A DNA stretch of 64,000 bases. It comes from an archaeon (lineage in GTDB: Archaea; Nanobdellota; Nanobdellia; Pacearchaeales; GW2011-AR1). Each line of letters begins with the position of its first letter. Position 1 is the stretch's first letter. A program made the position numbers and the translations under genes. The notes under the pieces are model-generated. The model ran no database searches. It worked only from the letters and a program-made list of their open reading frames with translations, and was not told the origin of the DNA. Below, one piece after another: positions 17,305 to 58,289 of this stretch. Location: NCBI GenBank assembly GCA_024278335.1, contig JAJRTJ010000001.1:94020-158019 (forward strand), read 5' to 3'.

Positions 17305-17376
17305 CGCCCACGCCGGGAGTTGAACCCGGGTTACGTCCGCGACAGGGACGTGTCATAGCCGTTAGACCACGTAGGC
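17305..17376 (-). tRNA. tRNA-Asp(GTC)
   Basis: GCCTACG/CGTGGGC acceptor, CGTCC-CTGTCGC-GGACG anticodon arm, CCGGG-TTCAACT-CCCGG T arm. Confidence 0.93.
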
Positions 17377-17428
17377 ACATTGCTTCGTGTTAATGCTCAG
17401 TAGAAACTTCGCATAGGCCACGTAGGCA
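17367..17428. repeat. 11-bp direct repeat of the tRNA-Asp 5' end (CCACGTAGGCA at 17367-17377 and 17418-17428)
   Basis: Exact match seen, offset 51 bp. Confidence 0.7.
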
Positions 17429-17567
17429 AATAACTGTGTTGATTTAGATGCCATTCCCAGTAGGCATAAATCAATAATTATCATTGCAGAATTTTGTTTA
17501 AAAGCTTTTCTTTTGAAAAAATTTGATTTATAATTAATTTTATAAATTTCCTTTTCTTTTTTATTCC

Positions 17568-17771
17568 ATGATAGAAGCACTAATATGGTATTTATTTTTG
17601 ATTGATTCTACTGGAGCAAATATTGTAGTCTGGTTTTTTCCAAAGTGGTATAAGAAAAAAGCAGGATGGTTTTACAAACATTTTCCTGCATCAAAAGGAT
17701 GGGCTCTGCTCTATCTGATATTGATTCTTTGGGTTGGAAGTGCCTTGAATAGACTTGGAATTATTTTTTAA
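17568..17771 (+). CDS. Small membrane protein
   Basis: 67 aa, two hydrophobic segments. Confidence 0.55.
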   Translation: MIEALIWYLFLIDSTGANIVVWFFPKWYKKKAGWFYKHFPASKGWALLYLILILWVGSALNRLGIIF

Positions 17772-18009
17772 AAACTTTATACCCTTTTCTAACTTTTTCT
17801 TTTACAACAACCCCAATCTCATCGCCTTTTTTTGCTTTTTGCACTTTCTCTCTATTTATCTGCATGCTTTCAACTTTTTCTTCAAAGTCAGTTTCTCCGC
17901 CACTAATGCGAATAGTGTCACCAACTTTTAACCCAGCAGAAAGCTTTATTGCAGCTGCCTTAACATGTTCAAAGTAGTTTGTGACTACTCCGATTTGTTT
18001 TTCTGCCAT
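17761..18009 (-). CDS. Stand-alone beta-barrel protein (EF-Tu domain II / peptidase U32 C-terminal-like)
   Basis: IGVVTNYF...LKVGDTI.I.G..TDF...VESMQI......AKKGDEIG pattern. Confidence 0.75.
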   Translation of the reverse strand: MAEKQIGVVTNYFEHVKAAAIKLSAGLKVGDTIRISGGETDFEEKVESMQINREKVQKAKKGDEIGVVVKEKVRKGYKVFKK

Positions 18010-18081
18010 ATTTTATTAAAGAAATTATAATATATAAAACTATTCAATAATATTTAAAAAGAATCTTTTTAAAGTATAATA

Positions 18082-18339
18082 ATGCCAATATATGACAGAG
18101 ATTGTTCTTAGAAAAACTGCAATTATGCTGGAGAATATTTGCTTGGGATAAATGAAGCAAACCTAAATTACCCAAAGTGTGGCTCACAACTTGAAATCAT
18201 ACAAGCAAAGGAAAGCTCTCCTTCTTCAAAGATTATTGAAGTAGCAATATCAATAACTATGCAGACAGGCTTCTCAAACAAAGATGAAATTCAAAAAAGA
18301 AATCAAAGAGCAATGCAAGGGCCCCCGACATTTAATTAA
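18082..18339 (+). pseudogene. FmdB-like zinc-ribbon protein interrupted by an in-frame TAG (18109-18111)
   Basis: MPIYDRDCS*KNCNY...LNYPKCGS resembles the MPxY..xC..C...CPxCGS family. One expected Cys is Tyr. Confidence 0.55.
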
Positions 18340-19159
18340 TTATTTCTTAATTCCAAAAAATCTCTTAAAAAATCCAACTACTCCTCCGACTGCTTTTGTA
18401 ACAATATTTTCTTTTGATTCTTCTTCTGGATTTACATATCCCTCTTCCCCAATTCCTGGGCCAGTTCCAGGATCATCCCCGAATTCTTCTGAAGCATCTT
18501 TACACACAACATCAACTATACAATCCCATCCTTCTCCAGAAGGACCTTCTACAGGTTCTCCATAACAATGCTCGCAAGTTTCACATTCTTTTTCTTTTTT
18601 AGTTAATTGCTCGTCATTTAAACAAGGACCTTCATAAAGATAAACACATTTTAACGCACACCTCTGGCAGAGGGCATTTCCAGTTTCACCTTCTTTACTA
18701 CTTCCACAAATTGTTCCAGGACTTTCACTTTCAACACATTTTGTTATACAAAGTTCCTCTGCACTCATCTTAGATTTATCTGGAGCATCGCCTCGCATAT
18801 TGCATTTTGCCTCACATCTTTCTGTATTTCTTCCCTGACATCCAAAGTCATAGTCCCCACATCCCTGCATTACACATTCTTGCATACAAGCCTCTCCTTT
18901 ATCTGAGGTTTTTGGAGGCCCGCTCACCTCAACTCCGCATCTCTGGCCGCACTTGTCTTTATTTAATTCTCTGCATTCTGAAGCAGTCAAATCACATCCT
19001 TCATTAATACAGCTTTGCATGCATTCTTGCTGCTCCATAGTTGGTCCTTCAATCCCTCTTTTACAAAATTTCCTGACAGCTGGCTAATCCTCAATTGACT
19101 GAGAACAGCAAGAAAAAAAGTCCAAGAAATATCAAGAAAAATAACTGCCTCTTTTTCAT
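18340..19159 (-). pseudogene. Cysteine-rich exported protein whose signal-peptide region is frameshifted and contains an in-frame TAG; the 18340-19038 portion is open
   Basis: MKKRQLFFLIFLGL starts at 19159. Removing one base of the A7 run (19113-19119) joins it to the Cys-rich frame, leaving a TAG at 19084-19086. Confidence 0.55.
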
Positions 19160-19230
19160 AATTTATTGAATATAATGAAGTTTAAAAAAGTTTTCAATAT
19201 GTTTTTATACCTTATTAATTTATTTTAATC

Positions 19231-19938
19231 ATGGCTGATAAGAAAAAAGAGTTGATTGTTTTGGAAAATATTTCTAAAATTTATGATATGGGAGAGACAA
19301 AAGTTGTTGCTGTTGATGGACTGAGCTTAAAAGTTAACAAAGGCCAATTTGTTGCAATTATGGGGCCGTCTGGTTCTGGAAAATCTACAAGCATGAACAT
19401 GGTGGGAAGTCTTGATGTTCCAACAAAAGGAAGGATTTTATTAGGCGGAAAAGATATTTCTCATTTAAGTGAATCAGAACTTGCTCAGCTCAGAGGAAAA
19501 AAAATTGGATTTATTTTTCAAAGTTTTAATTTAATTCCAAATTTAACTGCAAAAGAAAATATTATGCTCCCAATGATGTTTCAGGGAATTTCTGCAGAAA
19601 AAAGGATTGCAAGAGCAGAAGAGCTTTTAGAAATGGTTGATTTAAAAGATAGAATGGACCATTATCCAAATCAGCTTTCAGGAGGACAACAGCAAAGAGT
19701 TGCAATTGCCAGAAGCCTGTCTAATGACCCAGATGTCATTTTAGCAGATGAACCAACTGGAAATCTTGATACAAAAACTGGAGAAATTGTTATGTCTTTT
19801 TTAGATAAGCTGAACAAACAAGGAAAAACAATTGTTATGGTTACGCATGACCCTGATTTAGCAAAAGAGCATGCAGATGTTGTTTATTGGTTAAGGGATG
19901 GAAAGTTAGAGAAAGTTACAAAAAAAAGGAGGAAATAA
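19231..19938 (+). CDS. ABC transporter ATP-binding protein (LolD/MacB-type)
   Basis: GPSGSGKST, LSGGQQQRVAIAR, ADEPTGNLD, VTHD. Confidence 0.95.
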   Translation: MADKKKELIVLENISKIYDMGETKVVAVDGLSLKVNKGQFVAIMGPSGSGKSTSMNMVGSLDVPTKGRILLGGKDISHLSESELAQLRGKKIGFIFQSFNLIPNLTAKENIMLPMMFQGISAEKRIARAEELLEMVDLKDRMDHYPNQLSGGQQQRVAIARSLSNDPDVILADEPTGNLDTKTGEIVMSFLDKLNKQGKTIVMVTHDPDLAKEHADVVYWLRDGKLEKVTKKRRK

Positions 19939-21156
19939 ATGCTCTATGATTATTTTCTCTTGGCATTTAGAAATCTTAAAAAAAGAGGTTTAAGAAGTTG
20001 GTTGACTTTATTAGGAATTGTAATTGGTGTGACTGCAGTAGTTTCATTAATCTCTCTGGGAACAGGCTTGCAAATTGCAATTACTTCTCAATTTGGAATT
20101 AGCTCAACAGAAGTTATCACAGTGCAGGCAGGAGGAATAAATTTTGCAGGACCTCCTGGTTCAGCTGTTTCAAAACCCCTCACAATTGATGATGTAAAGG
20201 CAATAGAGAGACTTGGAACAGTAAAAAGAGCAATCCGCAGAAACATTCCTACTGGAAAAATAGAATTTAATAACAAAGTTATTTTTGGATTTGTTGCAAA
20301 CATTCCTCCAGGAGAAGAAGGAGAAATTGTTTATGATATTTTTCAGCTAAAAACCTTAAAAGGAAGGCTCTTGGGAGACAGAGACAAAAAAAATATCGTT
20401 GTAGGGTATAATTTTTATGCGAATAAAGTTGGCTTTGACAAAAAAGTTGAAGTAGGAGATAAAATTTTAATTCAAGATAAAAATTTCAAGGTGATTGGAA
20501 TTATGAAGAAAAAGGGAAGTTTTATTTTTGATAATATTGTTTTCATGAATTCTGAATCTCTTGAAGAATTAATGGGATATGGAGACGAAGTTGGATTAAT
20601 CGCAGTTATTGTAAAAGATAAAAGTTTGATGGAAAAAGCAAAAAAAGAAATTGAAGATTTATTGAGAAAGAGAAGAAAAGTCAAAAAAGGAGAGGAGGAT
20701 TTTGAAGTTTCAACTCCTGAAGCAGCGCTGGACACAGTTAATGACATTCTTAGAGGCGTTCAGATTTTCGTTGCAATTATTGCATTTATTTCAGTTTTTG
20801 TAGGAGCAATTGGAATCACAAACACAATGACTGCGTCAGTTTTAGAAAGAAAAAAAGAAATAGGAATTATGAAAGCAGTTGGGGCAAAAAACAGCCAAAT
20901 CTTTTCTCAATTTTTAATTGAATCTGGATTTTTAGGATTAGTCGGAGGAATTATTGGAGCAATATTTGGAACATTAATTGGAATTTTTGGAACTCATGCC
21001 ATTAATAATCTTGTAGGGGCTACAGCCAATATAGAAATCAATTTTGCTCTTATTTTTGCTGCTTTAACAGGAAGTTTTTTAATCGGAGCAGTTGCAGGAA
21101 TCATCCCTGCAATGAATGCAGCAAAACAAAATCCCGTGGAGGCATTAAGAGAATGA
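19939..21156 (+). CDS. ABC transporter permease (MacB/FtsX-type)
   Basis: RSWLTLLGIVIGV, periplasmic-type domain, ITNTMTASVLERKKEIGIMKAVGA. Confidence 0.92.
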   Translation: MLYDYFLLAFRNLKKRGLRSWLTLLGIVIGVTAVVSLISLGTGLQIAITSQFGISSTEVITVQAGGINFAGPPGSAVSKPLTIDDVKAIERLGTVKRAIRRNIPTGKIEFNNKVIFGFVANIPPGEEGEIVYDIFQLKTLKGRLLGDRDKKNIVVGYNFYANKVGFDKKVEVGDKILIQDKNFKVIGIMKKKGSFIFDNIVFMNSESLEELMGYGDEVGLIAVIVKDKSLMEKAKKEIEDLLRKRRKVKKGEEDFEVSTPEAALDTVNDILRGVQIFVAIIAFISVFVGAIGITNTMTASVLERKKEIGIMKAVGAKNSQIFSQFLIESGFLGLVGGIIGAIFGTLIGIFGTHAINNLVGATANIEINFALIFAALTGSFLIGAVAGIIPAMNAAKQNPVEALRE

Positions 21157-22358
21157 TAAGCACAGAAACACTAAAATACTCTTTGAAAAACCTTGTTCAT
21201 AGAAAAGCAAGAAGCTCTTTAACAATCTTATCTATTTTTATAGGAATTGTAACTATTTTTATTTTTGTTAGTTTTGGAATCGGGCTTTTTAATTTTGTAA
21301 ACAACTTTGCATCAGAAACTTCTGCGGATAAAATCATCATTCAAGCTAAAGGAGGAGGAATGCCTGGATTAGACGACACTTTTGCTCTGACAGAAGAAGA
21401 ATTAAAAATCATTCAAGATACTCCCGGAGTTATTGAAGCCACAGGCGTTAAATTCAAGACAGCAGAAATTAAAAAAGGCAATAAAAATTTCTTCTCCTTT
21501 GTAATCTCTTATGACCCTGAAAAACCCTTGATTTTAGAGTTATCTGATATTGATATTATAGAAGGAAGAGGATTAAGAAAAAAAGACCTTGGAAAAGTAG
21601 TTGCAGGATATAATTACATGCTTGATGATAAAATCTTTTCAAAAGCCTTGAAAGTAAATGACAAAATTGAAGTGCAGGGGCAGAAATTAAAAATAATAGG
21701 GTTTTTTGATAAAGTAGGCAATCCTCAGGATGATTCTCAGCTTTATGTAACAGAAGAGCAGTTGGACTTGCTTTACCCAGGAAATAATTCTTTTGGATGG
21801 ATAGTTGCAAGAATTGATTTAAAAAAAATAAACACTACAATTGAAAAAATAGAAGAAAATCTAAGAGAACACAGGAATTTGGAAAAAGGAAAAGAAGATT
21901 TTTTTGTCCAATCTTTTGAAGATTTAATTGCAAGTTTTAGCAGTGCTCTGAACATTGTGGTGTTTTTTGTAGTTTTAATTGCACTCATCTCTGTAATTGT
22001 TTCTGCAATTAATACTGCAAATACAATGATTACTTCTGTTTTAGAGAGATATAAAGAAATTGGGATTATGAAGGCAGTTGGCTCTTCAAACTTGGTCATT
22101 TTTAATATATTCTTGCTTGAATCTTCAATTCTTGGGTTTATTGCAGGAGTGCTTGGGGTTTTAGTTGGATGGGCGCTAAGTGCTTTTGCTGGAAATGTTT
22201 TAAACAACCTTGGATGGGGGTTTTTAAGCCCTGCTTTTCCTGCTTCTCTGTTTATCGGATGTATTTTATTTGCAACTATAACTGGAGCTGTTTCTGGAGC
22301 AATTCCTGCATGGCAGGCATCAAAAACAAATATTGTTGATGCGCTTAGATATGAATGA
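21153..22358 (+). CDS. ABC transporter permease (MacB/FtsX-type), second paralog
   Basis: RSSLTILSIFIGI, NTMITSVLERYKEIGIMKAVG, ALRYE end. Confidence 0.92.
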   Translation: MISTETLKYSLKNLVHRKARSSLTILSIFIGIVTIFIFVSFGIGLFNFVNNFASETSADKIIIQAKGGGMPGLDDTFALTEEELKIIQDTPGVIEATGVKFKTAEIKKGNKNFFSFVISYDPEKPLILELSDIDIIEGRGLRKKDLGKVVAGYNYMLDDKIFSKALKVNDKIEVQGQKLKIIGFFDKVGNPQDDSQLYVTEEQLDLLYPGNNSFGWIVARIDLKKINTTIEKIEENLREHRNLEKGKEDFFVQSFEDLIASFSSALNIVVFFVVLIALISVIVSAINTANTMITSVLERYKEIGIMKAVGSSNLVIFNIFLLESSILGFIAGVLGVLVGWALSAFAGNVLNNLGWGFLSPAFPASLFIGCILFATITGAVSGAIPAWQASKTNIVDALRYE

Positions 22359-22435
22359 TTTTAAATATTTAGCTTTTTTAATTAAAGACATACTTGTTCT
22401 TGCGTAATAAAAAATTTGAGAGAGCGAAAGCGAAC

Positions 22436-22492
22436 CTCTTAACCTTTGTTAGACGAAATTTTAATTTCGTGAGTTCTTTGGTCGGTTAAGAG
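22436..22492. repeat. Structured motif copy 1: stem-TTTGTTAG-hairpin-GAGTTCTTT-stem
   Basis: CTCTTAACC/GGTTAAGAG outer stem and ACGAAAT/ATTTCGT inner stem. Same layout as 23332-23400. Confidence 0.65.
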
Positions 22493-22946
22493 AAGTTTTT
22501 CTGCGAGGCGAAGCCGAGACTATCTGTGCGAAGCACTAAGGCGGCTCACCTTTTTTACAACAATTTCTACAATTTAGGGGCGGGTGGTCGGGGGTTTTAA
22601 AGTGTTCTCTCCCAACTTTTAACTCAACAATTTAGAGAATTTGCAATTACGCCTAACATATGCGATTAAGAGAAGTAACAATCCCTCCAAAATTTATCCT
22701 CTGGAATGAAATGACGAGCTGAGAAATTTTTGAGAGCTGGATTGACATTTGGGTTAATTTCTGGTTTTCAAAAAGAAAATTTGCAAAGCAAAAAGAAATT
22801 TTCCGCTTAATCTGCTGTTGCTTGACCTGAAGCGAAGCGAAAGGCTCGGGCTGGCACCCAAAGTGCCCCCGAGAGTTGAGATTTCGTTCTCAGCCGATTT
22901 CGTAGCGTAGTTGCTAAAAAAAATAGAAAAAGGAAGAACCGAAATA

Positions 22947-22954
22947 TTTAAATA
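22947..22954 (+). promoter_or_regulatory. Archaeal TATA box (TTTAAATA) with upstream BRE-like CGAAA
   Basis: Lies 22 nt before the ATG at 22976, consistent with a leaderless transcript. Confidence 0.55.
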
Positions 22955-22975
22955 CTACTAAGTAATGACAATAAT

Positions 22976-23302
22976 ATGATAAAAATAGATTTTGATGAAT
23001 TAGCAAAAAGATTAAGTCACGACTTAGAATTTACTTTAGATGCGAAAGGACCTATGACTAATTTAATCTTGCCCGCTGAAGAAGAAGCAAAAAGATGGCA
23101 ACAGTGGAGAGATAGAAGAATGACTGCCATCAACGAAGCAGAAGCAAGATATCAGGCAAGATTAAAAAATGCTTACAAAGCTGAGGAAATAGACGGAATG
23201 GAATTAGCAAAGCATTCAACCAGCGGAATTTTTAGTCCTTTCGAAAGAATGAGGCAAAGAACAAGACAGACTTATGCCGAAAATGCAAAATCTGTTTTTT
23301 GA
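22976..23302 (+). CDS. Orphan hypothetical protein flanked by structured repeats
   Basis: 108-aa ORF with its own TATA box. Helical and charged. Confidence 0.6.
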   Translation: MIKIDFDELAKRLSHDLEFTLDAKGPMTNLILPAEEEAKRWQQWRDRRMTAINEAEARYQARLKNAYKAEEIDGMELAKHSTSGIFSPFERMRQRTRQTYAENAKSVF

Positions 23303-23331
23303 GGTTCTTCACAAAATAATCCTTCAGCAAT

Positions 23332-23400
23332 TTCGTTAAAATTTTGTTAGGCAAAGTTGCGTAGCAATTTTGAAAGCGAGTTCTTTATGATTTTAACGAA
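23332..23400. repeat. Structured motif copy 2: stem-TTTGTTAG-hairpin-GAGTTCTTT-stem
   Basis: TTCGTTAAAAT/ATTTTAACGAA outer stem and AAAGTTGC-GTA-GCAATTTT inner hairpin. Confidence 0.65.
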
Positions 23401-23639
23401 GCAAGAAATCAAAGGGCTGAGAATTACTTGCAACCTAAAGGGCAGGGAGCGGGGACAGAAAACGCAAGGTAAGAAATTGAGGGGAAGGCAAGTAACCCGG
23501 AGGGCGAAATCTCAATTTGGGCGAAGCCAAGCAACACCTTTTAATCTCAATTTCTTTTTCATAATAATTAATTAGTAAAAATAAAACTATCGAAATATAT
23601 AATAAGAATTCTTAAAAACGATAAAAAAATTTAATTTCA

Positions 23640-23852
23640 ATGAATTTTTGCGAAAAAGCTGTTCAAAAAAGAAAAGCTTCCTTAGAGGCTCTTGCAAAAG
23701 AGTTAGCTCCTGAACAAGCGATGAGATTATATGGAGAAGCTGAAGCTTTTTATATTATAGGGAAAATGGATGGAGAAAATGGATTTTCTGAAGAAAACTG
23801 GGGAGAATATCTTGCTGAAAAACAAAGGCAGATTCAAAAAAGAATAGATTAA
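23640..23852 (+). CDS. Small hypothetical protein
   Basis: 70-aa ORF with a TATA-like AT run upstream. Confidence 0.5.
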   Translation: MNFCEKAVQKRKASLEALAKELAPEQAMRLYGEAEAFYIIGKMDGENGFSEENWGEYLAEKQRQIQKRID

Positions 23853-33344: not shown

Positions 33345-33496
33345 CCCTCCATAGCTCAGTGGTTTAGAGCGCCTGGCTGTAGAATAGGGCGGATATTCCA
33401 TTATGTTCATGGAAATTAAATGAAGCCTGAGAAGCCAGTCCTGTTACTGCGTATGCAGTTCCCGGGAGATCCCCAGTTCGAATCTGGGTGGAGGGA
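33345..33496 (+). tRNA. tRNA-Tyr(GTA) with a 78-nt intron at 37/38 (33383-33460)
   Basis: CCCTCCA/TGGAGGG acceptor. Anticodon stem CCTGG/CCGGG. Bulge-helix-bulge: CTGT/GCAG helix, AG|A and TT|C bulges, ATA/TAT outer helix. Confidence 0.9.
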
Positions 33497-40173: not shown

Positions 40174-40930
40174 TCTGAAAAACCTTCTTAAAATTCTCTT
40201 CAATTTGTTTTTCAACTTTTTCTTCAGACATATTCCAAATATTAGCCATTATTTTTATTGTCTCCCTTATATAAGCTGGCTCGCTCTTTTTTCCTTTAAA
40301 AGGAGATAAATAAGGAGCATCAGTTTCTGTCAAAATCTTTTCTTTTGAAACAAGCTCTAAAAGTTTTTGAAAATTTTGCATTCTATTTACTGAACAAGGA
40401 ATAGAAAAATAACATCCCTGTTGTTCTGCTTTTTTAGCCAATTTCATATTACCGCAAAAGCAATGAAGAATTTTCTTTAATTTAGGAAAATCTTTCAAAA
40501 CCCCTATAACCTCTTTTTCTGCCTTTCTTGTATGAATAATTGCAGGAACTCCAAGTTTTTCTGCAAACAAAAGTTGTTGCCTGAATAATTCTTCCTGCCC
40601 CTCTTTATCTTTTCCAGAAGAAAAATCCATTCCAATTTCTCCAATAGCAAAAACAGATTTCTTGTTTTTTAAAACAAATTTTTTCAAATCCTGAAAACTA
40701 TCTTTTATTTTCTTATTTGTTTCTCTTGAAAGTGCGTCTTGAGGGTAAAATCCAAATGCACATTTAACCAGAGAATATTTTTTTGAAATTTCCAAGTTTT
40801 TCCTGCAGGAATTTAAATCAACTGAATTTGAAATAACTGCTCCAATACTCTGTTTTTTTGAATTTTCAATTATCTTTTTCAATTCTTTCTCATTAAATAA
40901 ATCAAGATGAGCGTGGCAGTCATAAATCAT
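40163..40930 (-). CDS. tatD: TatD-family deoxyribonuclease
   Basis: DCHAHL, AIGEIGMD, IIHTRKAE, ILHCF, LTETDAPY. Confidence 0.92.
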   Translation of the reverse strand: MIYDCHAHLDLFNEKELKKIIENSKKQSIGAVISNSVDLNSCRKNLEISKKYSLVKCAFGFYPQDALSRETNKKIKDSFQDLKKFVLKNKKSVFAIGEIGMDFSSGKDKEGQEELFRQQLLFAEKLGVPAIIHTRKAEKEVIGVLKDFPKLKKILHCFCGNMKLAKKAEQQGCYFSIPCSVNRMQNFQKLLELVSKEKILTETDAPYLSPFKGKKSEPAYIRETIKIMANIWNMSEEKVEKQIEENFKKVFQIKE

Positions 40931-40931
40931 T

Positions 40932-41789
40932 TTAAGCTAATATTGCATAAAGAACACAGGCAATTATAACAATCGCTGCCAAGATGTTTCGTTTATCTAA
41001 TTTTTCTTTTAAGAAAATTCTTGCAAAAGCATAAACAAAAACTGGTCCTAAAAGTAAAAGCAAGGTTGTAAAAATAACTCCAAGCTGGATATATCCATAA
41101 TAGACCATTACTCTATAAAAAACCCAAAGCGCACCAGTAACAAATATCTGCCATTTAATTTTTGTGTTAATTGCAGAAAGTTTTGGTCTAAATAAGAAAA
41201 AAGCAACAATAAAAATTGAAAGACATCTGAGAAAATAAAAAGAAATTGGAGTATAATAATCAAGAATTAATTTTGTCAAAACCAATTCCAAGGCAAAGAA
41301 AAAACTCGCTCCTATTGCTGCAAGAAAATATTTGTTAAAATCAAGATGGTGCTTTTTTATATGTGAAAAAACCAGTGCAAGAGATGCAATTATGGCAGGA
41401 AAAATTACATTAAAATTTCTTTGAAATAATATTGTGCCAAAGATAAAACTAAAAACCAGTGCAAGAAGAATTGTAAATAATGGCTCTAAAATTATCGCAG
41501 GTTCAAGGGTTGTTATCTTCTCCCATTTGATTGCAAAAAACAAAAGAAGATTGGCTGTAAGTGAAGAAATAATAATTAAAAAAAAGATAAACAAATTTTT
41601 TAATTCAAATGCTTGTGCATCAAGTTTCCAAAAAAAGTAAATAAATGGAAGCATAACAATAATTGTTGCCAAAAAAGTAGCACTTACAAAAGTCTGAGAA
41701 TTAATTTTCTTTTTTCCTAAAATAATTTTTTCCATTAAAGTAAGAGTTGCAAAAGCCAATGCTCCAAAAATAGGGAGATAAATTATCAT
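40932..41789 (-). CDS. DMT/EamA-family transporter
   Basis: About 10 TM helices in two repeats, ending ARIFLKEKL. Confidence 0.8.
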   Translation of the reverse strand: MIIYLPIFGALAFATLTLMEKIILGKKKINSQTFVSATFLATIIVMLPFIYFFWKLDAQAFELKNLFIFFLIIISSLTANLLLFFAIKWEKITTLEPAIILEPLFTILLALVFSFIFGTILFQRNFNVIFPAIIASLALVFSHIKKHHLDFNKYFLAAIGASFFFALELVLTKLILDYYTPISFYFLRCLSIFIVAFFLFRPKLSAINTKIKWQIFVTGALWVFYRVMVYYGYIQLGVIFTTLLLLLGPVFVYAFARIFLKEKLDKRNILAAIVIIACVLYAILA

Positions 41790-42396: not shown

Positions 42397-42469
42397 GGTC
42401 CCATGGTCTAGTGGTTATGACGACTCGTTTACACCGAGTAGATCGACGGTTCGATTCCGTCTGGGACCA
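42397..42469 (+). tRNA. tRNA-Val(TAC)
   Basis: GGTCCCA/TGGGACC acceptor, ACTCG-TTTACAC-CGAGT, GACGG-TTCGATT-CCGTC. Confidence 0.94.
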
Positions 42470-42559
42470 TTTAGGAATCGAACTTTAGTTTATGCGAAGC
42501 AACTGCGTTGATGAGTATAGGGGAGAACTTTGTTCAAGCCCGATTCCGTCTGGGACCAT
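42452..42559 (+). repeat. 19-bp exact direct repeat of the tRNA-Val 3' end (att-like scar)
   Basis: CGATTCCGTCTGGGACCAT at 42452-42470 and 42541-42559. Confidence 0.85.
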
Positions 42560-49491: not shown

Positions 49492-51246
49492 ATGACTAAG
49501 ATTAGACAGCCAATTGTAACAGTTTGCGGTCATGTTGACCATGGAAAAACATCAATCCTTGATTGTCTTAGAGGCTCTTGTATTCAAAAACAAGAAGCAG
49601 GGGGAATAACTCAAAAAATCTCTTTTACACTATATCCAACAACTCAGCTCAAACAAGCCTGTCCTTTAATTGAAAGTTCTGGTATAAAACTCAATATTCC
49701 AGGATTTCTTTTAATAGACACACCCGGACATGCTGCATTTACAAATTTAAGAAAAAGAGGAGGCTCTTTGGCAGATTTAGCAGTCTTAGTTATTGATATT
49801 ACTGAAGGAATAAAACCCCAAACAGCAGAAGTAATTCAAATTTTAAAATTAAATAAAACTCCATTTATAATTGCATTAAATAAGATAGATAAAATCTCTG
49901 GATGGAGAACAGATAAAGAAATTTCATTAAAGCAATCTATTGAATCTCAAGCCCAGCATGTCCAGCAAAGATTTCAAGAGCTTTATATGACTCTTATTGG
50001 CTCTTTAAACTCACATGGTTTTGACGCAGATTTATTTTACAATATCAAAGACTTTACTCAAAAAATAGCCCTTATTCCAACTTCTGCAGAAACAAAGCAA
50101 GGAATACCAGAATTAATAATGATGCTCTGCGGATTAAGCCAAAAATATCTTGAAAACAAGCTCAAACTAGGGAAAGAGGCAAAAGGGGTAGTTCTTGAAG
50201 TTAAAAAAGAAAAATCAATGAATTATGCTGAAGCTATTCTTTACGACGGAACACTTTCAAAAAAAGATGAAATAGCAATTTCAGATTTTCAAGGAAACCC
50301 AATAATCAGCAAAATAAGAATTTTAGAAGAAATCCAGCCCCTTTGCGCAAGATTTGCCCCAAAAGAAAAAGTAGAAGCATCAACAGGATTAAGACTTCAA
50401 TTAATAACTAAAGAAGAAATTCCTGCAGGAATGCCTTTTGTTATCTATAAAAACAACCTTGAAGAAATAAAAAAAGAATTTAAAAAACAAGTCTCTGAGA
50501 CACTCTCTTCTTTTTTATCCAAACAAGGAATCATCGCAAAGGCAGACTCTTTAGGAAGTTTAGAAGCTTTGCTGGTGTTGTTAAAGCAAAGCAATATTCC
50601 AGTTCTTAAAGCAGGAATTGGAAAAATAAATAAAACAGACATAATTTCAGCCAAAGCAAATCTTGACATAAATGAATTAGACGCACTTATTGTTGGATTT
50701 AATGTAGAGCCAAACCAAGAAGCTAAAGAGCTGTTGGCAAGCTATGGAGAAAAATCAAAAATAAAAATCTTGACAGGAGAAGTGATTTATAAATTAATTG
50801 AAGACTTGGCAGAAATCAGAGAAAAAAGAAAAAGAGAAATAGAAAAACAAAGAATTATGGCTCTTAGCACTATTGCAAAAATAGAAATCTTGCATGAATA
50901 TGTTTTTAGAAACACAAATCCAACTATTTTTGGAGTTAGAATCATAGCAGGCAAATTAAAACAAAATTTAATGCTAATAAATAAACAAGGAGAAAAAGTT
51001 GGTAAAACAAAAGCAATCCAGTTAGACAAAAAGCCGGTTGAAGAAGCAACTGAAGGCCAGGAAGTTGCACTTTCTGTTTCTGGAACAAATTATGAAAGAC
51101 AGCTTAAAGACAAAAAATATCTTTACACAGATTTAGGAGAGTCTGCATTTAAAGAATTTAAAGAAAATAAAGACCTCTTAACAGAAACTGAAAAAAAAGC
51201 TCTTGCAGAAATCGCAGATATTAAAAGAAAATTAAACCCTGATTAG
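49492..51246 (+). CDS. infB: Translation initiation factor aIF5B
   Basis: RQPIVTVCGHVDHGKT, ITQ, DTPGH, NKID, ADSLGSLEAL. Confidence 0.96.
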   Translation: MTKIRQPIVTVCGHVDHGKTSILDCLRGSCIQKQEAGGITQKISFTLYPTTQLKQACPLIESSGIKLNIPGFLLIDTPGHAAFTNLRKRGGSLADLAVLVIDITEGIKPQTAEVIQILKLNKTPFIIALNKIDKISGWRTDKEISLKQSIESQAQHVQQRFQELYMTLIGSLNSHGFDADLFYNIKDFTQKIALIPTSAETKQGIPELIMMLCGLSQKYLENKLKLGKEAKGVVLEVKKEKSMNYAEAILYDGTLSKKDEIAISDFQGNPIISKIRILEEIQPLCARFAPKEKVEASTGLRLQLITKEEIPAGMPFVIYKNNLEEIKKEFKKQVSETLSSFLSKQGIIAKADSLGSLEALLVLLKQSNIPVLKAGIGKINKTDIISAKANLDINELDALIVGFNVEPNQEAKELLASYGEKSKIKILTGEVIYKLIEDLAEIREKRKREIEKQRIMALSTIAKIEILHEYVFRNTNPTIFGVRIIAGKLKQNLMLINKQGEKVGKTKAIQLDKKPVEEATEGQEVALSVSGTNYERQLKDKKYLYTDLGESAFKEFKENKDLLTETEKKALAEIADIKRKLNPD

Positions 51247-51310
51247 GGAATCTAAGTTCTCGCTAATTCATCAGAGATAAACTAAAGAAAATCCGGAATT
51301 GGGAGTTTAA
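51229..51310 (+). repeat. Recoded duplication of the aIF5B C-terminal codons (KLNPD*GI* / KENPELGV*)
   Basis: 51229-51255 versus 51284-51310, offset 55, 19/27 nt identical. Confidence 0.7.
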
Positions 51311-51713: not shown

Positions 51714-51749
51714 TTTAAAAACCAATTCTTCAATTAATCTATATCAAAA

Positions 51750-52250
51750 ATGGCTTTTAAAATAAATATTTCAGAAAAATCAGGAAAAACTTACAAGTTA
51801 GAAGTAGAAGAAAATATCTTAAATGATAAAAAACTTCACGACAAAATCCAAGGAAATATTTTAAACCCAGATTTAGAAGGATATGAGCTAGAAATTACTG
51901 GAGCAAGCGACAAGTCAGGCTTTACTGCAATGGAAGGAGTTGCAGGAATTGGTTTAAAAAAAGTTCTTTTAGGATATGGAAAAGGAATGAAAAAAAGACC
52001 AAAAAAAGAGGGGAAAAAAGAATACTCCAACAAAACTCCAAAAGGATTAAGACTTAGAAAAACAGTTAGAGGAGAAGTCATTTCTTCTGCAATTGTTCAA
52101 ATAAATCTTAAAGTTCTTAAAGAAGGTTCAAAAAAACTTGAAGAAATCTTCAAAACAAAAGAAGCTTCAAAAGAAGGAGAAGCACCTGCACAAGTAACAC
52201 AGGAAGAAAAACCTGCTGAAGCGCCAAAGCAAGAAGAAGTTAAAAAATAA
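51750..52250 (+). CDS. rps6e: 30S ribosomal protein eS6
   Basis: LEITGASDKSGF...G.R.RKTVRGEVI...QINLKV. Confidence 0.93.
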   Translation: MAFKINISEKSGKTYKLEVEENILNDKKLHDKIQGNILNPDLEGYELEITGASDKSGFTAMEGVAGIGLKKVLLGYGKGMKKRPKKEGKKEYSNKTPKGLRLRKTVRGEVISSAIVQINLKVLKEGSKKLEEIFKTKEASKEGEAPAQVTQEEKPAEAPKQEEVKK

Positions 52251-52315
52251 ACAAATTCTTCGTAAGATAAATTACAACCCAAAACTCTTAAAAACTCTTT
52301 CTTCACTTTATTCAT

Positions 52316-53500
52316 ATGAAAAATCTTCCTGAATTAATTGTAGGAGTTGTAGGCCATATTGACCATGGAAAAACCACTCTTCTTAGTCAGTTGACTGGAA
52401 AATTTACAGACACTCATTCTGAAGAATTAAAAAGAGGAATAACAATTAAGCTCGGTTATGCAGATATCACAATTTCAAAAGATAAAAACACCTTTAATAA
52501 TCAAGGAAAAGGAGAGCCTCAAAGATATGTTTCATTTATAGATGCTCCTGGACATGAAATGCTAATGGCAACAATGCTTTCTGGAGCTGCAATAATTGAC
52601 GCTGCAATTTTAGTTATTGCGGCAAACGAAGGAATAAAGCCCCAGACCCAAGAGCACTTTATGGCTCTGCAGGCAAAAAAAATAAAAAATTTAATAATTG
52701 TCCAAAACAAAATAGACCTTGTCTCAAAAGAGCAGGCTCTTGAAAACTACAAAAAAATAAAAGAATTTGTAAAAGGAAGTTTTGCGCAAGACTCTCCAAT
52801 AATTCCTGTTTCTGCCCAGCAAGGAATTAATATTGACAAGATTCTTGAAGAATTATGCAAAATAAAAATTCCTGAAAGACCAATTAATACTGGCCCAATT
52901 TTTCTTATTGCAAGAAGTTTTGATATCAATAAGCCAGGAAAAGAGATCTCAAAATTAAATGGAGGGATTCTGGGAGGAATTTTAAAACAAGGAAAACTAA
53001 AAACAGGAGATGAAATTGAAATAAAGCCTGGCTTAATTGAAAAAAAGAACAACCAAACTAGCTACCAGCCTCTTACAACAAAAATATTATCTATTTACAA
53101 AGGTTCAAAAAAAGTAAATGAAGTAAAACCAGGAGCAAGTATTGCAATAGAAACATCACTTGACCCAATATTAACAAAAACAGATTCCTTAACAGGTGGG
53201 CTTGTTTCAAAAAAAGGAATCTTGCCTGAGATTAAAAACAAAATAACAATCAAAGCAGAGCTCTTTGAAAACCTTTCTGGAACAGAAGAGCATGAAAAAA
53301 TCCAGTCATTTAAAACAAAAGAAATGTTAATGCTCTCTATAAACACCACAATAACTGTGGGAATAGTTGAAAAAATCTTAAACAAAGAAATAGAGCTTTC
53401 TCTAAACCTTCCAATCGTAGCAATCAAAGGAGACAATCTTGGAATTGCAAGAAACATCAACAACCACTGGAGATTAATCGGCTATGGCGAAATAGTTTAA
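52316..53500 (+). CDS. eif2g: Translation initiation factor aIF2 gamma subunit
   Basis: GHIDHGKTT, HSEELKRGITIKLGY, DAPGHE, NKID, RSFDINKPG, WRLIGYG. Confidence 0.96.
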   Translation: MKNLPELIVGVVGHIDHGKTTLLSQLTGKFTDTHSEELKRGITIKLGYADITISKDKNTFNNQGKGEPQRYVSFIDAPGHEMLMATMLSGAAIIDAAILVIAANEGIKPQTQEHFMALQAKKIKNLIIVQNKIDLVSKEQALENYKKIKEFVKGSFAQDSPIIPVSAQQGINIDKILEELCKIKIPERPINTGPIFLIARSFDINKPGKEISKLNGGILGGILKQGKLKTGDEIEIKPGLIEKKNNQTSYQPLTTKILSIYKGSKKVNEVKPGASIAIETSLDPILTKTDSLTGGLVSKKGILPEIKNKITIKAELFENLSGTEEHEKIQSFKTKEMLMLSINTTITVGIVEKILNKEIELSLNLPIVAIKGDNLGIARNINNHWRLIGYGEIV

Positions 53501-53578
53501 AAGTGAGAAAATTAAAAATAACCAATAACAGCTTTTGAACTATTGGGCAGAGATTATTCAATAGAGAGAAATTAGTTA

Positions 53579-53896
53579 TTAATAACAGCTTTTAAATGAT
53601 TGAGGAGCTTCTCTTTTATTTTTAAAATAATTTATTCCTGGTAAGAGAGAAAGAGCAAGTGCTGTTGCTCCAAACCTATAAGCCCAAGTCTCAAAATATC
53701 CAGAAGTTCCTGTAAAATAAGCTTCTTCATATTTTTCTCCACGAATCCCTGCCTGTCTTGCTCTCCAAGAATCAGTAGCAGACATTCCAGCACAAGCAGA
53801 AAAAAGAGCAAATGTCCCTCCAAGAACCACATTCAAAACAAGTTTCTTTAAGCGTGAATTTCTTCTTGATTGTTTCATGAATTTAAAGGCAAACAA
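53579..53896 (-). CDS. Small membrane protein
   Basis: 105 aa with two hydrophobic segments. Confidence 0.5.
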   Translation of the reverse strand: MFAFKFMKQSRRNSRLKKLVLNVVLGGTFALFSACAGMSATDSWRARQAGIRGEKYEEAYFTGTSGYFETWAYRFGATALALSLLPGINYFKNKREAPQSFKSCY

Positions 53897-53969
53897 GGGT
53901 TTAAAAAATTTTGCAAAATACCTAAAAGTAACAATAAAACTTTATTAACTCAGATTTTTACACAACATA

Positions 53970-54821
53970 ATGGGAAAATATTCACATTCTAAACTTTCAA
54001 CTTTTGAACAATGCCCATTTAGATTTAAACTAAGATATATTGACAAAATAAAGCCAGAAATAGAAAAATCAATTGAAGCCCATCTTGGGACGGCAGTTCA
54101 TGATACATTAGAATGGATTTATCTTAAAGCACAAAAACAAAATCCCCCAAAAATTGATGAAGTAATTGCTTTTTATACTGACTCATGGAAAAAAGATTTC
54201 TCAGAAAATATTGAAATTGTCAAAGACTTAACCCCTGAAGATTATTTTAACAAAGGTGTGCAGTTTCTTCTTAATTATTATCAAAGGCATTTTCCATTTC
54301 AAGATGGAACAATTGAGCTTGAAAAAGAAATCTCAATCAAGCTTGGGCAGAATAAATAGCATCAAATAAGGGGATTTATAGATCGGCTGGTTTTCAACCC
54401 TGCAACACAAGAATATGAAATTCACGACTATAAAACTGCAAACACTCTGCCGACAAAAGAAAAAATAGAACAAGACCGCCAGCTTGCACTTTATTCTATT
54501 GCCATAAAAGAGCAGTTTGGACAAGAAAAAGAAGTAAAACTTGTCTGGCACTACCTTGCTCATGACACGCAAATAGAATCAAAAAAATCAAATCAACAGC
54601 TTGAAGAATTGAAACAAGAAATAATAAACTTAATTGAAAAAATAGAATCAGCTGAAGAATTTCCAAAACAAGAGTCAATTCTCTGCAAGTGGTGTGAATA
54701 CAAAAATCTCTGCAAAGAATTTTCAATACAAGAACAGCAACAAAAAGAAAAACTCTTAAAAGAAAAATTTCCAACAGCAAGTAAATATATTAAAAAAGAA
54801 TTTCACAATATTTTGGAATAA
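53970..54821 (+). CDS. PD-(D/E)XK nuclease (Cas4/AddB-like, Fe-S staple) interrupted by one in-frame TAG at 54357-54359
   Basis: SHSKLSTFEQCP, GTAVH, EK, then after the TAG: GFIDRL, IHDYKT, QLALY, CKWCEYKNLC in the same frame. Confidence 0.85.
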
Positions 54822-54822
54822 A

Positions 54823-57270
54823 TCACTCTTTTTTTTCTGCTTCTTCAACAACTCTTACGACATCACTAACCCTATCCCCTGGTTGGAGTTTGACAATTCT
54901 AACTCCTTGTGCAGCACGGCCCATCACACGAATATTTTTCAATCCAGTTCTAATTACCATTCCTTTGGCAGTTGTAATAATAATGCTGTCTTTATCTGTA
55001 ACTGCCACTGTATTAACAACATTTCCTGTTTTCTAGGAAACCTTTAAATTAATAACTCCTTTTCCAGCACGAGCAGTTTTTCTATAATCTTCAACAGCAG
55101 TTCTTTTTCCATAGCCTTTTTCTGTAACAGTTAAAATATTTGCAGTCCCTAAAACTTCTAAACTCACAACTTCGTCATTTGGTTTTAGCTTTATTCCTGC
55201 CACACCATAACTTGCCCTGCCCATTGCCCGAACATCATCAGCATTAAACCTAATTGCCTGACCTTTTTTTGTCGCCAGAGTAACTTCCTGCCCTTCTTTA
55301 AGAACCTCTACTCCAATTAAATTATCAGAATGGTCTGCCGGAAGATTAATTGCCCGCACTCCTGAAGCACGAGGCTTTGAAAAATGACTTAATGCAATTT
55401 TCTTAACAATTCCTTTTTTAGTTGCCATAAATAAATAATCATCAAAAGATTTAACAGAGATTACACTTGTTACTTCTTCGTTCTTTAATCCAAGCAAATT
55501 AGTCAAAGCCCTTCCTTTGCTGTATCTTTCTGCTTCTGGAATATCATGCGCCTTAAGCCATAAAACTCTTCCCCGAGAAGTAAAAAACATTAAATAATCC
55601 AAAGTAGAACAGCTAATCAACTGCCTTGTAAAATCGTCGGTAGCAAGATTGCTTCCAATAACTCCTTTCCCTCCTCTCCTCTGTTGCCTATAAGATGAAA
55701 CATCCATTCTTTTAACATAACCTTTGTCAGTAATCGTTACAATAACGTCCTTTTTTTGCACAAGGTCTTTCTCAGAAATCTCATTAATTTTCTTTAAAAC
55801 CCGAGTCCTTCTTTCATCTCCATATTTATTCTTTAATTCCTTGACTTCTTTTACAATAATTTTAATAACTTCTTTAATATCTCCAAGAATATTGTCTAAT
55901 TCTTTAATTAACTTCTTCAATTCCTCTTCCTCTTTTTTCAACTTATCAACTTCAAGGGAAGTCAATTGCTGTAACCGGGTTTCCAAGACTGCTTCTGCCT
56001 GCCTTTGGCTTAACTTATATTTTTTCATTAAGCCTTCCATTGCTTCATTTTTAGTCTTGGATTTTTTAATCAAAGAAATAACAGCATCAATGTTTTTTAA
56101 AGCAATTAAAAGCCCTTCAACAAGCTCTTTTCTTTCTTTTGCTTTCTTTAATTCAAATTCAGTTCTTTTTGTAATAATTTTTTTTCTGTATTCAACATAT
56201 TCCTTCAAAACCTGCTTTAATCCAAGAACTTTTGGTTGTCCATTTACAAGAGCCAGAAAATTAACACTAAAAGAATCTTGAAGCCGGGTATATTTATACA
56301 GCGCATTTACAATTAAATCAGGATTTGCACCTTTTCTTAATTCAATTACAATTCTAATCTGGCCTTTAGAAGACTCGTCTCTCAAATCAGAAACGTCCCT
56401 AATTTTTTTATCCCTAACCAATACAGCTATTTGCTCAACCAAAGTAGACTTATTTACCATATAAGGTATTTCAGTAATAACAACTGCATCTTTTTTCTTA
56501 ATTGTCTCTATTTTAGTCTTTCCTCTTAAAATAAGCCTTCCTCTTCCAGTTTCATAAAGTTCTTCCATATCCCCAGAAACACTTCCTCCAGTAGGAAAAT
56601 CAGGACCAGTAATAATCTTTGTAAGTTCCTTTATTTCAATATTTGGTTTATTAACATAAGCAATAATCGCGTCGCAGACCTCTGTTAAATTATGGGGAGG
56701 AATGTTTGTTGCCATTCCTACTGCAATTCCTGTTGCTCCATTAAGCATTAAAGCGGGAAGTTTTCCTGGAAGCAGGCTCGGCTCTTTCAAGGAAGCATCA
56801 TAATTTGGGACAAATTTGACAGTCTCTTTATCAATATCTGCAAGCAACTCGCTTGAAATAGGCATTAATTTGGCTTCTGTATATCTCATTGCTGCGGCCT
56901 CATCTCCGTCAATAGAGCCAAAATTACCTTGTCCAAAAACAAGGGGATATCTTAATGAAAACTCTTGGGCCATACGCACCATTGTTTCATAAACTGCAGA
57001 ATCTCCATGAGGGTGATACTTACCAATCACATCTCCCACAATTCTTGCTGACTTTTTTGTAGAAGTATTTGGCTTTAATCCCATTGCCTGCATTGAATAA
57101 AGAATCCTTCTCTGAACTGGTTTCAAACCATCCTCAATTGCAGGAATTGCCCGAGAAACAATAACACTCATTGCATAATCCAAATAAGCTTTTTTCATTT
57201 CCTCAGACACTTCTGCTTGAATAATCCCTTTCTCTATCTCATTAATTTTGTCTGTTTCTGACGGAGTCAT
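54823..57270 (-). CDS. gyrA: DNA gyrase subunit A, interrupted by one in-frame TAG at 55033-55035
   Basis: [20 protein letters not shown], GyrA-box QRRGGKG. The final blade (...[12 protein letters not shown]) continues in frame after the TAG. Confidence 0.95.
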
Positions 57271-57581
57271 GCTATTTCTTCTCCTTTTTTATCTAAATAT
57301 TCCATAAGCTCGTCTTCTGTGAATTCTTTTTTAACAATATCGGCCCCTTTCCATTTGCATTTATGGCACTCCCACTCTTCTCCCCCTCCTATTTCAGAAT
57401 CTTTTCCACTTAAAACAACCCCCACATCATCACTCCCACATTTTGGACATTCCCTGATTGTAAATGTTTTGCCTTTTTTCTTTTTTCGCACTTTTTTGCC
57501 AGTAGCCTTAGCATATTCTTCAGGAGAATCATATCCTTCCCTTATCCAATCTGGTGTTGATAATTTTGATTTCTTCGCCAT
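57267..57581 (-). CDS. Zinc-ribbon protein
   Basis: CPKCGS...WECHKC, with ATGA coupling to gyrA. Confidence 0.7.
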
Positions 57582-57582
57582 T

Positions 57583-58194
57583 TTATAACTTACCCTTTAA
57601 TTCTTTTTTAAATCTTTCAATAAACTGCTCTGCAAAATCATATCTTGCTTTAGCAAGCTCTTGAGCTTTTTTTGTATTAAAATTTTCTGGATTAACTTTT
57701 TTATTTCTCTCTTCAATGTATTTTATTACACTTTCTCCCTCTTCATCATAAAAAGGATGATTATACAAATATGCTGAAGAAAAAGCTCTTGCAATTAATA
57801 TTGCTCCAAGGGAGTCAAGGCGGTCTGCATCTTGAAGAATTTTCGCTTCTTTGGACTCTGCTTTTAATCCCTTGCTAAGACGATGAGTTCTTATTGCGTC
57901 TGTTATTATCTTAATTTTCTCTTCAGAAATATCTTCAAATTCTTTTAAAATTTCTTCAGCCATTTTAGCCCCTTCCTCTGCATGGCATGTTGTCTCATTA
58001 TTCGCTTCTTTTATCCTTGCAATATCATGTAAGAGCGCTGCTATTTTGATTGCATCAATATCCCCTCCTTCACTATCTGCAATTTCAACAGCATTGTTTA
58101 ATACCCTCTCAGTATGCCCAAATTCATGGCTTTCTCCAGTTTTAAAGTAAGGAAGTATTCTTTCTTTTAATAAAATTAAAAAATCTTCTTTCAT
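57583..58194 (-). CDS. HD-domain phosphohydrolase
   Basis: HEFGHTERV, AALLHDI, HA, H, LQDADRLD. Confidence 0.9.
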   Translation of the reverse strand: MKEDFLILLKERILPYFKTGESHEFGHTERVLNNAVEIADSEGGDIDAIKIAALLHDIARIKEANNETTCHAEEGAKMAEEILKEFEDISEEKIKIITDAIRTHRLSKGLKAESKEAKILQDADRLDSLGAILIARAFSSAYLYNHPFYDEEGESVIKYIEERNKKVNPENFNTKKAQELAKARYDFAEQFIERFKKELKGKL

Positions 58195-58195
58195 T

Positions 58196-58289
58196 TTACA
58201 CGTCTAAATCTGCCTCCCTGGTTTGGCTCATCAGAGACGAGCTAGTGGCGGCAAATCGAGATTCTCTACACATCGAGATTTGCCTCCCG
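58196..58289 (-). repeat. Recoded duplication of the gyrB C-terminal codons (REANLDV* / READLDV*)
   Basis: 58266-58289 versus 58196-58219, offset 70, 18/24 nt identical, 6/7 aa identical. Confidence 0.8.

Follow-up and report, generated by a model that had tools for sequence, protein, structure and literature searches.

Elements integrated by tyrosine recombinases, such as archaeal plasmids and viruses of the pNOB8 and SSV types and bacterial genomic islands, occupy the 3' ends of tRNA and protein genes. Integron attC cassettes and CTX-phi at dif are recombined as folded single-stranded substrates by a recombinase that is encoded elsewhere. Casposons are Cas1 transposons found at tRNA 3' ends and at the EF-2 gene end, with duplications of 14-15 bp. 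Insertion with long and variable target duplication was reportedly described by Nobusato and colleagues in 2000. In bacteria, such insertion with a long, variable target duplication involves kilobase-sized restriction-modification units (Furuta et al. 2010, PMC2853133). Here, we analyze short duplicated gene ends in a 64,000-nt stretch of an archaeal genome (C4:94020-158019, called the window below; positions are those of the window unless a contig is given) and their counterparts elsewhere in that genome, which comprises 575 kb in four contigs with 32% GC.

The sites are probably integrated non-autonomous mini-elements, which carried their own copy of the gene end and depended on a recombinase supplied in trans. 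The targets are the ends of highly conserved genes, namely those of tRNAs, GyrB, aIF5B, EF-2, uS2 and RuBisCO, and elsewhere also of RNase P RNA. Literature searches retrieved no description of such miniature gene-end-replacing elements. The genomes used for comparison belong to other genera of the same family; G- and L-labels denote the genomes and loci of these relatives.

Duplicated gene ends in the window

A sequence-only reading of the window had listed four gene-end duplications, at tRNA-Asp, tRNA-Val, aIF5B and gyrB, as four copies of a family of insertions. Each of the four was confirmed, and the tRNA-Asp 5' end proved to have one more copy, outside the other two, which makes five; the count of four is a large underestimate, given at least 25 insertions in the genome. 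Spacers are referred to below by the recurrent hairpin modules A, B, C and G, which are defined in the next section.

The tRNA-Asp gene carries nested insertions at its 5' end. Its first 11 nt, CCACGTAGGCA (17367-17377), are repeated 51 nt upstream at 17418-17428, and the repeat can be extended to 15 nt with one mismatch. The site is built as follows:

17304-17377, minus strand: functional tRNA-Asp(GTC) gene (ARAGORN; Rfam tRNA, 57.3 bits)
17363-17377, minus strand: proximal copy of the 5' end, the first 15 nt of the gene
17378-17413, minus strand: inner spacer, a module-A variant with a CCTATGCGAAG...CTGAGCAT hairpin
17414-17428, minus strand: middle copy of the 5' end (TGCCTACGTGGcCTA), displaced 51 nt from the one in the functional gene
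17427-17455, minus strand: outer spacer, with the module-G hairpin AAATCAACACAGTTATTTG at 17427-17445
17456-17466, minus strand: outermost copy of the 5' end (TGCCTACTGGG)

A TATA-like box, CTTTTAAACA (17496-17505), lies at the native distance from the outermost copy; in seven relatives with an uninterrupted tRNA-Asp gene, a TTTAAAAA-type box is found at an equal distance. None of seven other genera has a second tRNA-Asp start. The outer spacer is identical to the gyrB spacer of genus G007 in 20/20 nt, and the tRNA-Asp gene of another metagenome-assembled genome (MAG) holds a module-B insert at the identical D-loop position.

The 3' end of the tRNA-Val gene is duplicated as an exact 19-mer at 42452-42470 and 42541-42559 (offset 89):

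42397-42469, plus strand: functional tRNA-Val(TAC) gene (ARAGORN, Rfam)
42452-42470, plus strand: proximal repeat, spanning T-loop C56 through the first base beyond the 3' end
42471-42540, plus strand: 70-nt module-A insert
42474-42483, plus strand: arm of the insert complementary to the T-loop (GGAATCGAAC)
42488-42521, plus strand: core of the insert, GTTTATGCGAAG...GATGAGTATAGG; the insert terminus is GTTCAAGCC
42541-42559, plus strand: distal, displaced 3' end, followed by the native AT-rich trailer

Neither the insert nor a second tRNA-Val end occurs in 10 other genera. The sequence-only reading had pointed to TATGCGAAG as shared by the two tRNA spacers; this motif belongs to a real module, A, common to three other tRNA spacers.

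The two ends of aIF5B lie 55 nt apart in different frames:

51229-51255, plus strand: proximal end, in use, K L N P D stop G I stop
51256-51283, plus strand: 28-nt spacer with TCATCAGAGA at 51268-51277; weak folding
51284-51310, plus strand: distal, displaced end, K E N P E L G V stop, out of frame

A conserved Trp codon has changed from TGG to TAG at 51244-51246 and serves as the working stop codon. The distal end resembles the usual C-terminus of relatives, with W changed to L. This C-terminus reads WG(I/V/M/L/A/N) before the stop codon in 13 of 15 relatives, as in ...KNPEWGI (G002) and ...NPVWGV (L099), and two relatives end otherwise; the residue before WG is mostly E, D or small. Although the nucleotide match is unimpressive, the duplication is accepted as real on account of these C-termini. 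The insertion is absent in other genera (15 relatives). A TTTTAAAAAC box follows the distal copy, and a similar box follows aIF5B in G006 and G014.

The gyrB gene has its 3' end duplicated at an offset of 70:

58266-58289, minus strand: proximal end, in use, R E A N L D V stop
58220-58265, minus strand: 46-nt spacer
58196-58219, minus strand: distal, displaced end, R E A D L D V stop, offset 70, out of frame

The spacer contains an arm (58250-58262) complementary to the proximal gyrB end in 10/12 positions, and a second hairpin that ends in ...CTGATGAGCC; the spacer bears a loose likeness to module B (AGAATCTCG...CTGAGC). One A separates the TAA of the distal copy from the start codon of the next gene (ATG, 58192-58194). 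In G015, G008, G005 and G002, the downstream ATG likewise begins 0-5 nt past the gyrB stop codon, and the sequence TAAAATG at the gyrB end of G015 is shared with the distal copy here. No second gyrB end was found within 1.5 kb in 28/29 other genera; in genus G007, a 55-nt insertion with a different spacer occupies the same GGAGGC codons. Metagenome contigs searched for an empty-site or filled gyrB-end allele yielded none, and an exact-protein look-up of the gene downstream of gyrB returned no record. The GyrB protein of this genome has 630 residues and is free of inteins; gyrB reading frames of 1060-1580 residues in several relatives (L018, L026, L027, L035 and others) suggest inteins there.

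By comparison with relatives, the distal copy is shown to be the ancestral end in every window case (tRNA-Val, tRNA-Asp, aIF5B and gyrB). Since the distal copies sit in native context and the relatives are empty, the working end and the spacer appear to have come in together. The proposal that these are gene-end-restoring insertions is thereby supported: the end in use arrived with the spacer and the old end was left beside it. The suggested look at relatives for empty sites, which found other genera empty at tRNA-Val, tRNA-Asp, aIF5B and gyrB (28/29), agrees with it, as does the remark that no integrase or transposase is nearby, recombinase and transposase genes being absent near every window site.

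Other parts of the proposal fared less well. The spacers were called hairpin-rich, which is only moderately so, with DNA folding z-scores of -2.4 (tRNA-Val), -2.65 (tRNA-Asp, over 17378-17472, which includes both spacers), -1.6 (gyrB) and -0.4 (aIF5B). They do not form one sequence family: they comprise module A, module G, a loose module-B likeness and one unclassified spacer, that of aIF5B, which matches none of the defined modules. The 10-mer TCATCAGAGA is present in the gyrB and aIF5B spacers as described; it fails as a family marker, occurring at only those two sites in 575 kb, and is thin evidence that the two spacers are related. The TGATGA common to three of the four spacers is trivial.

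Searches of the whole window against Rfam matched only tRNAs. The direct repeats at 16418/16493 and 41367/41451, considered as further cases, are ordinary intragenic repeats. The tRNA-Tyr gene (33345-33496) has a 78-nt intron at the canonical position.

Genome-wide census and recurrent modules

A genome-wide search for terminal-codon and tRNA-end duplications found further copies, bringing the total to at least 25 insertions. The genome contains 36 direct repeats that are 14 nt or longer and have offsets of 35-200, compared with 0-5 in shuffled sequences; 15 of the 36 lie at tRNA ends. When shorter repeats are included, a duplicated end is present in 15/36 tRNA genes (42%). Duplications of a C-terminal peptide plus stop codon within 160 nt affect four genes, with 0.2 expected: gyrB, EF-2, ribosomal protein uS2 and a NOL1/Nop2-type methyltransferase; aIF5B raises the number of duplicated protein 3' ends to five. 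Duplicated protein 5' ends were found in form-III RuBisCO and in a small zinc-ribbon gene. Insertions are nested at tRNA-Phe, tRNA-Lys(TTT), tRNA-Thr(GGT) and tRNA-Asp, and tRNA-Asn and tRNA-Thr(TGT) have an insertion at each end. The repeats are real and far beyond chance.

The unit, consisting of one repeat copy and the spacer, is 51-150 nt long, and the inserts measure 23-137 nt. All real copies lie within 200 nt of the gene; no tRNA-end copies were found 0.2-5 kb away, and the nearest stray 12-mer of a tRNA end is about 8 kb distant. These sizes bear on the idea that the sites are eroded attachment (att) scars of large integrative plasmids or viruses, whose attP had carried the gene end and whose interior was later deleted. 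Repeats, recoded ends and a short core are what integrase-type integration leaves behind, and a deletion bias is plausible in a highly reduced genome. However, more than 25 scars would all have to be 51-150 nt long with intermediates absent, the same modules of about 30 nt directly adjoin the distal repeat in other genera as well as at targets unrelated to one another, nested insertions occur at tRNA-Asp, tRNA-Lys, tRNA-Phe and tRNA-Thr, and none of the sites adjoins an integrase remnant. We therefore consider erosion of large islands improbable, and the view of the sequence-only reading that these are mini-elements rather than decayed islands is supported.

The spacers contain recurrent hairpin modules. 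Module A, GTTTATGC...GA(T/C)GAGCATAGG...(A)GCC, is preceded by an arm complementary to the T-loop of the tRNA in question; it occurs at tRNA-Val, tRNA-Arg(CCT), tRNA-Ile(GAT) and tRNA-Thr(GGT), and in a shortened form at tRNA-Asp. Module B, GCTCAGAAAATCTCTACGAGATTCTGGCT, is found at tRNA-Phe, tRNA-Asn, tRNA-Lys(CTT), tRNA-Lys(TTT), tRNA-Cys and RuBisCO; its cap is present in at least six copies here, with pairwise identity of 90-97% among BLAST-aligned copies. Nine further module-B loci, in eight other MAGs, lie at tRNA 5' ends, at one tRNA 3' end, in the interior of RNase P RNA, and beside a module-A core. Module C, ...GGGATGACC-hairpin-GGCC, is located at tRNA-Ile(TAT), tRNA-Lys(TTT) and tRNA-Arg(TCG). 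Module G, GCAAATCNACRCAGTNATTTGCATA, occupies the outer tRNA-Asp spacer, the EF-2 spacer, tRNA-Thr(TGT) and one more site. The exact module-G pattern has 15 matches in 7/201 genomes of the family, and its reversed control has none. In other genera it is found at gyrB (G007), EF-2 (G165), the end of an aminoacyl-tRNA synthetase gene (G206) and tRNA-Ile (G006), in each case flanked by a gene end and its duplicate; the EF-2 genes of G165 and of this genome both have module G, at the G-L-(A/S)-E codons. The MAGs that gave close matches to the short modules carry the labels Woesearchaeota, Pacearchaeota or Nanoarchaeota. A degenerate module-A pattern with one mismatch gave nearly only noise in 150 genomes. 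Module B is absent from IMG/VR, and the module-G matches there lie inside viral coding DNA and are attributed to chance, so no viral master element was found.

The distribution shows the modules to be mobile, as judged from genome comparison and thus in the evolutionary sense: one module is found at different targets, one target with different modules, and the occurrence across genera is patchy. Independent hits on one site are represented by gyrB (here and in G007), EF-2 (here and in G165) and tRNA-Asp (here and in another MAG).

Several further repeats resemble parts of this set. At L083 (G006:C8), the 3' end of tRNA-Gly(GCC) and about 22 nt of its trailer are duplicated around a 13-nt filler, CATAACATTCAGC, a minimal form of the layout given below. 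The core of module A and the hairpin of module G are strung together in apparently coding, lysine-rich open reading frames (ORFs) at L082 (G005:C8), L113 and L115 (G134), and modules A and G may thus also insert in frame in other genera. Family D is a structured repeat of about 80 nt (C1:61801-61880, C4:8941-9018 and C2:231984-232059), with one copy directly beside the tRNA-Ile(TAT) 3' end and another flanked by an 18-nt direct repeat. Family F, a repeat of about 100 nt beginning at gene starts (C2:23152-23255, C2:188460-188563 and C2:9127-9166), has an internal AAAACAACCTAAGC repeat and a CTGCGAAGCG hairpin. A GC-rich double hairpin of 38/39 nt, GCCCCAGAATTCCGCATTTTGGGGTATGCCGAGCGGC, is inserted in frame in six housekeeping ORFs (window positions 5149-5186 in a minus-strand ORF, C1:35095, C2:77620, C2:217725, C2:228085 and C4:90166) and, as with Rickettsia palindromic elements, each of the three frames is used.

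The insertions share a common layout. From the gene body outwards, it consists of the gene end in use, a short variable linker, the hairpin module, the displaced end and the native flank. The linker often includes an arm complementary to the target, which is perfect over 9-12 nt in module A and imperfect in module B. The far terminus of the hairpin module (..AAGCC, ..GAGC or ..TTTGCATA) abuts the displaced end precisely. Modules A, B and C have their junctions at T-loop position 55/56, and 5' insertions have theirs in the D-loop; at tRNA-Asp, the junction position is equal in two genomes with different modules. The order is read on the sense strand for 3' insertions and on the antisense strand for module-B 5' insertions, and this flip of module B indicates that the layout follows the DNA of the gene body rather than the transcript.

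The strand behavior argues against a feature that acts as RNA, such as a bulge-helix-bulge (BHB) intron, a selected leader or trailer structure or a small RNA, instead of mobile DNA. Module A has G:T pairs on the tRNA-sense strand, and inserts at 5' ends must be transcribed as leaders, which both speak for such a feature. Yet the polarity follows the gene body, module B being reversed at 5' relative to 3' insertions, no splicing is needed to give complete tRNAs, the inserts lack Rfam matches, and pairing of the complementary arm with the T-loop would be in competition with tRNA folding. Equivalent splice points in identical copies could not, by reasoning, form the 4-bp central helix of a BHB motif. 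An RNA-level origin is thus very improbable. Archaeal BHB introns in particular were rejected on the complete tRNAs beside the inserts and on the polarity, with no formal BHB scan made, and the box C/D or k-turn reading of TGATGA...CTGA and the hammerhead reading of CTGATGAG were dismissed by eye, as the partner motifs are missing.

Recoded gene ends and candidate mechanism

The sequence-only reading expected the supplied gene ends to be synonymously recoded, and the codons of the duplicated protein ends bear this out. Seven duplicated ends were compared, five from this genome together with gyrB of G007 and EF-2 of G165. Between the copies, 29 codons differ, 21 of them synonymously and 8 nonsynonymously; random substitution predicts about 23 nonsynonymous changes (and about 6 synonymous ones), and 0/20,000 simulations reached the observed value. 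Six of the eight nonsynonymous differences are conservative swaps (N/D, V/I, D/E, I/V, L/I and G/A), and the remaining pair comprises L/E and the hits on the Trp codon in aIF5B. The EF-2 copies differ at six positions, every one silent and in the third position of its codon. Neutral decay of a stranded copy would look different, which indicates that both copies evolved as working gene ends.

The inner edge of the repeats is conserved in another way. All five recoded cases have a perfectly identical run of 8-9 nt there, chosen post hoc (GGGAGGCA, ATGGAGGC, GGGCTGGC, TTTATCTGA and TGGACTGG). Third-position differences number 0/10 within the run, itself picked post hoc, and 17/26 beyond it (p = 4e-4). 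By analogy with attP/attB joining, recoding together with a putative short core is the signature of a replacement end carried by an element.

The identical inner block and the recoding are left unexplained by a transposon-like insertion with a long, variable target duplication, in which the strands are nicked 10-50 nt apart, a hairpin is joined and the gap is filled, so that the copies are identical at birth. This mechanism has points in its favor: several repeats are perfect and extend into the non-conserved leader or trailer, the end that abuts the distal copy is precise and the other end variable, as in one-ended or target-primed insertion, and restriction-modification genes offer a published precedent for such insertion (PMC2853133). 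It does not account for the nearly exclusively synonymous differences of older copies or for identity limited to the inner 8-9-nt block. Moreover, the repeats usually stop at the exact gene end (between -2 and +1 at six tRNA 5' ends, and at the stop codon of gyrB), Cas1/casposase is absent from the genome, and the IS200 TnpA does not track the elements (2/7 as against 31% of genomes). We regard such target duplication as unlikely, if somewhat less so than the erosion of large islands.

Integration of mini-elements that bring their own gene end could proceed as follows. The element would carry a copy of the gene end, like the attP of a tRNA-integrating plasmid or virus, and would recombine with the chromosome inside the short identical core. 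With the end carried and the exchange confined to the core, integration would swap the gene end and leave the gene unbroken. The element is too small to encode an enzyme, and the reaction would be performed by a recombinase acting in trans, for which two Xer-like tyrosine recombinases are candidates. A folded single strand is favored as the substrate, because a duplex circle of 50-150 nt cannot bend and a target-complementary arm lies by the hairpin; this arm would rebuild a duplex-like site, in a mode resembling that of integron attC cassettes or CTX-phi at dif. At 5' insertions, the native promoter would drive a long leader, which RNase P would be required to remove.

The sequence-only reading suggested a search for a cognate recombinase elsewhere in the genome. 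Genes for the two Xer-like tyrosine recombinases do lie on other contigs, as does one for an intact IS200-type TnpA. The Xer-like proteins are paralogues, encoded at C1:6898-7821 (plus strand) and C3 ~40616-41545 (minus strand), and are the only Phage_integrase genes in the genome; most archaea have one XerA. No match to PF01867, the Cas1/casposase family, was found in the genome. IS200/IS605-type Y1 transposase genes are present as an intact copy (C1:285-734), a copy with four stop codons (C2:41652-42014) and a fragment (C4:1134-1286). The Y1 transposase was rejected as the mobilizer despite its intact copy, as it has no association with module G across 201 genomes: Y1_Tnp occurs in 2/7 module-G genomes and in 62/201 (31%) overall. 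The right-end hairpin of the intact IS200/IS605 copy contains GATGCGAAGCATC and shares ATGCGAAGCA with the core of the tRNA-Val spacer.

Several observations weigh against integration of elements that import a gene end. No excised form, no empty-site allele in a close strain and no activity were seen. Some long, perfect repeats run into non-conserved flanks, with lengths of 48 nt at tRNA-Arg(CCT), 33 nt at tRNA-Ile and 42 nt at the NOL1-type methyltransferase, and the 34-nt repeat of L074 includes 13 nt of the leader. These long perfect repeats look more like target duplication at insertion than like an imported end. Either young copies arise within one lineage and reach diverged lineages afterwards, or a staggered-cut mechanism operates and the distal copies are kept coding by something else. 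The target-complementary arm varies, being perfect in module A, imperfect in module B and absent in L074, and the aIF5B and gyrB spacers do not fold clearly better than shuffled sequence. The p-value of the identical block is generous, since the block was defined afterwards as the longest run, and the presence of Xer-like recombinases says little, given that they are near-universal in archaea.

Going further, we speculate that DPANN archaea possess a previously unrecognized system in which a host recombinase writes single-strand cassettes of 50-150 nt into the ends of essential genes, with targeting partly by base pairing through the target-like arm of the cassette and with terminal codons moved between lineages; this broader proposal is tentative and, on balance, doubtful. 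If active, the elements would be smaller than any site-specific integrative element known so far and would comprise hardly anything beyond an attachment site, and even a symbiont-type genome of 575 kb would have a busy mobilome affecting 42% of its tRNA genes. For annotation, true gene ends, tRNA leaders and promoters are shifted by 50-150 nt. The stranded ends form a record of past gene ends, and mini-elements may explain inserted sequence in archaeal stable-RNA genes. A recombinase that accepts minimal hairpin substrates, at sites partly defined by the cassette, would be of interest as a genome-writing tool.

Comparison with known systems

The mini-elements share with tyrosine-recombinase elements the gene-end direct repeats (attL/attR) that flank the insert and leave the gene intact, as well as the working replacement end, the T-loop crossover position and the housekeeping targets; the 8-9-nt block, defined post hoc, may correspond to their short core of strand exchange. 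Unlike in those elements, the whole insert is 51-150 nt long and encodes nothing, an integrase is not nearby, 5' ends and D-loops are used as often as 3' ends, and dozens of copies are present in 575 kb. Integron attC cassettes and CTX-phi, an integrative mobile element exploiting Xer (IMEX), are likewise small enzyme-less units, and hairpins with target-like arms are predicted here. In contrast to integrons, many different gene ends are targeted rather than one site, and no IntI-type integrase or attI platform is known.

MITEs (miniature transposable elements with inverted repeats), repetitive extragenic palindromic (REP) and REPIN-RAYT sequences, and Rickettsia palindromic elements are also short, multi-copy, hairpin-forming and non-autonomous, and occur in small genomes. 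The elements described here differ from MITEs in lacking terminal inverted repeats and a fixed short target duplication (the repeats are 8-48 nt) and in having one variable end, and from both MITEs and REPINs in the strict targeting of gene ends and the restored, recoded end. They differ from REPIN/RAYT and IS200/IS605-derived elements in that there is no link to Y1 transposases and a target duplication is always present. With casposons they have in common the target classes (EF-2 and tRNA 3' ends) and a target duplication longer than that of ordinary transposons; however, Cas1 is absent, the repeats span 8-48 nt, terminal inverted repeats are missing and the ends are recoded.

Inserts with long target duplication resemble the mini-elements in their long, variable target repeats, often over the 3' end of a gene, and in having no recognizable mobility gene. 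They are, however, kilobase-sized and have no reported shared hairpin modules or recoding. Whereas long target duplication yields copies that are identical at birth, only some repeats here are perfect into the flanks, and others are synonymously recoded. As far as the repeats themselves are concerned, what has been reported on long target duplication at restriction-modification genes comes closest.

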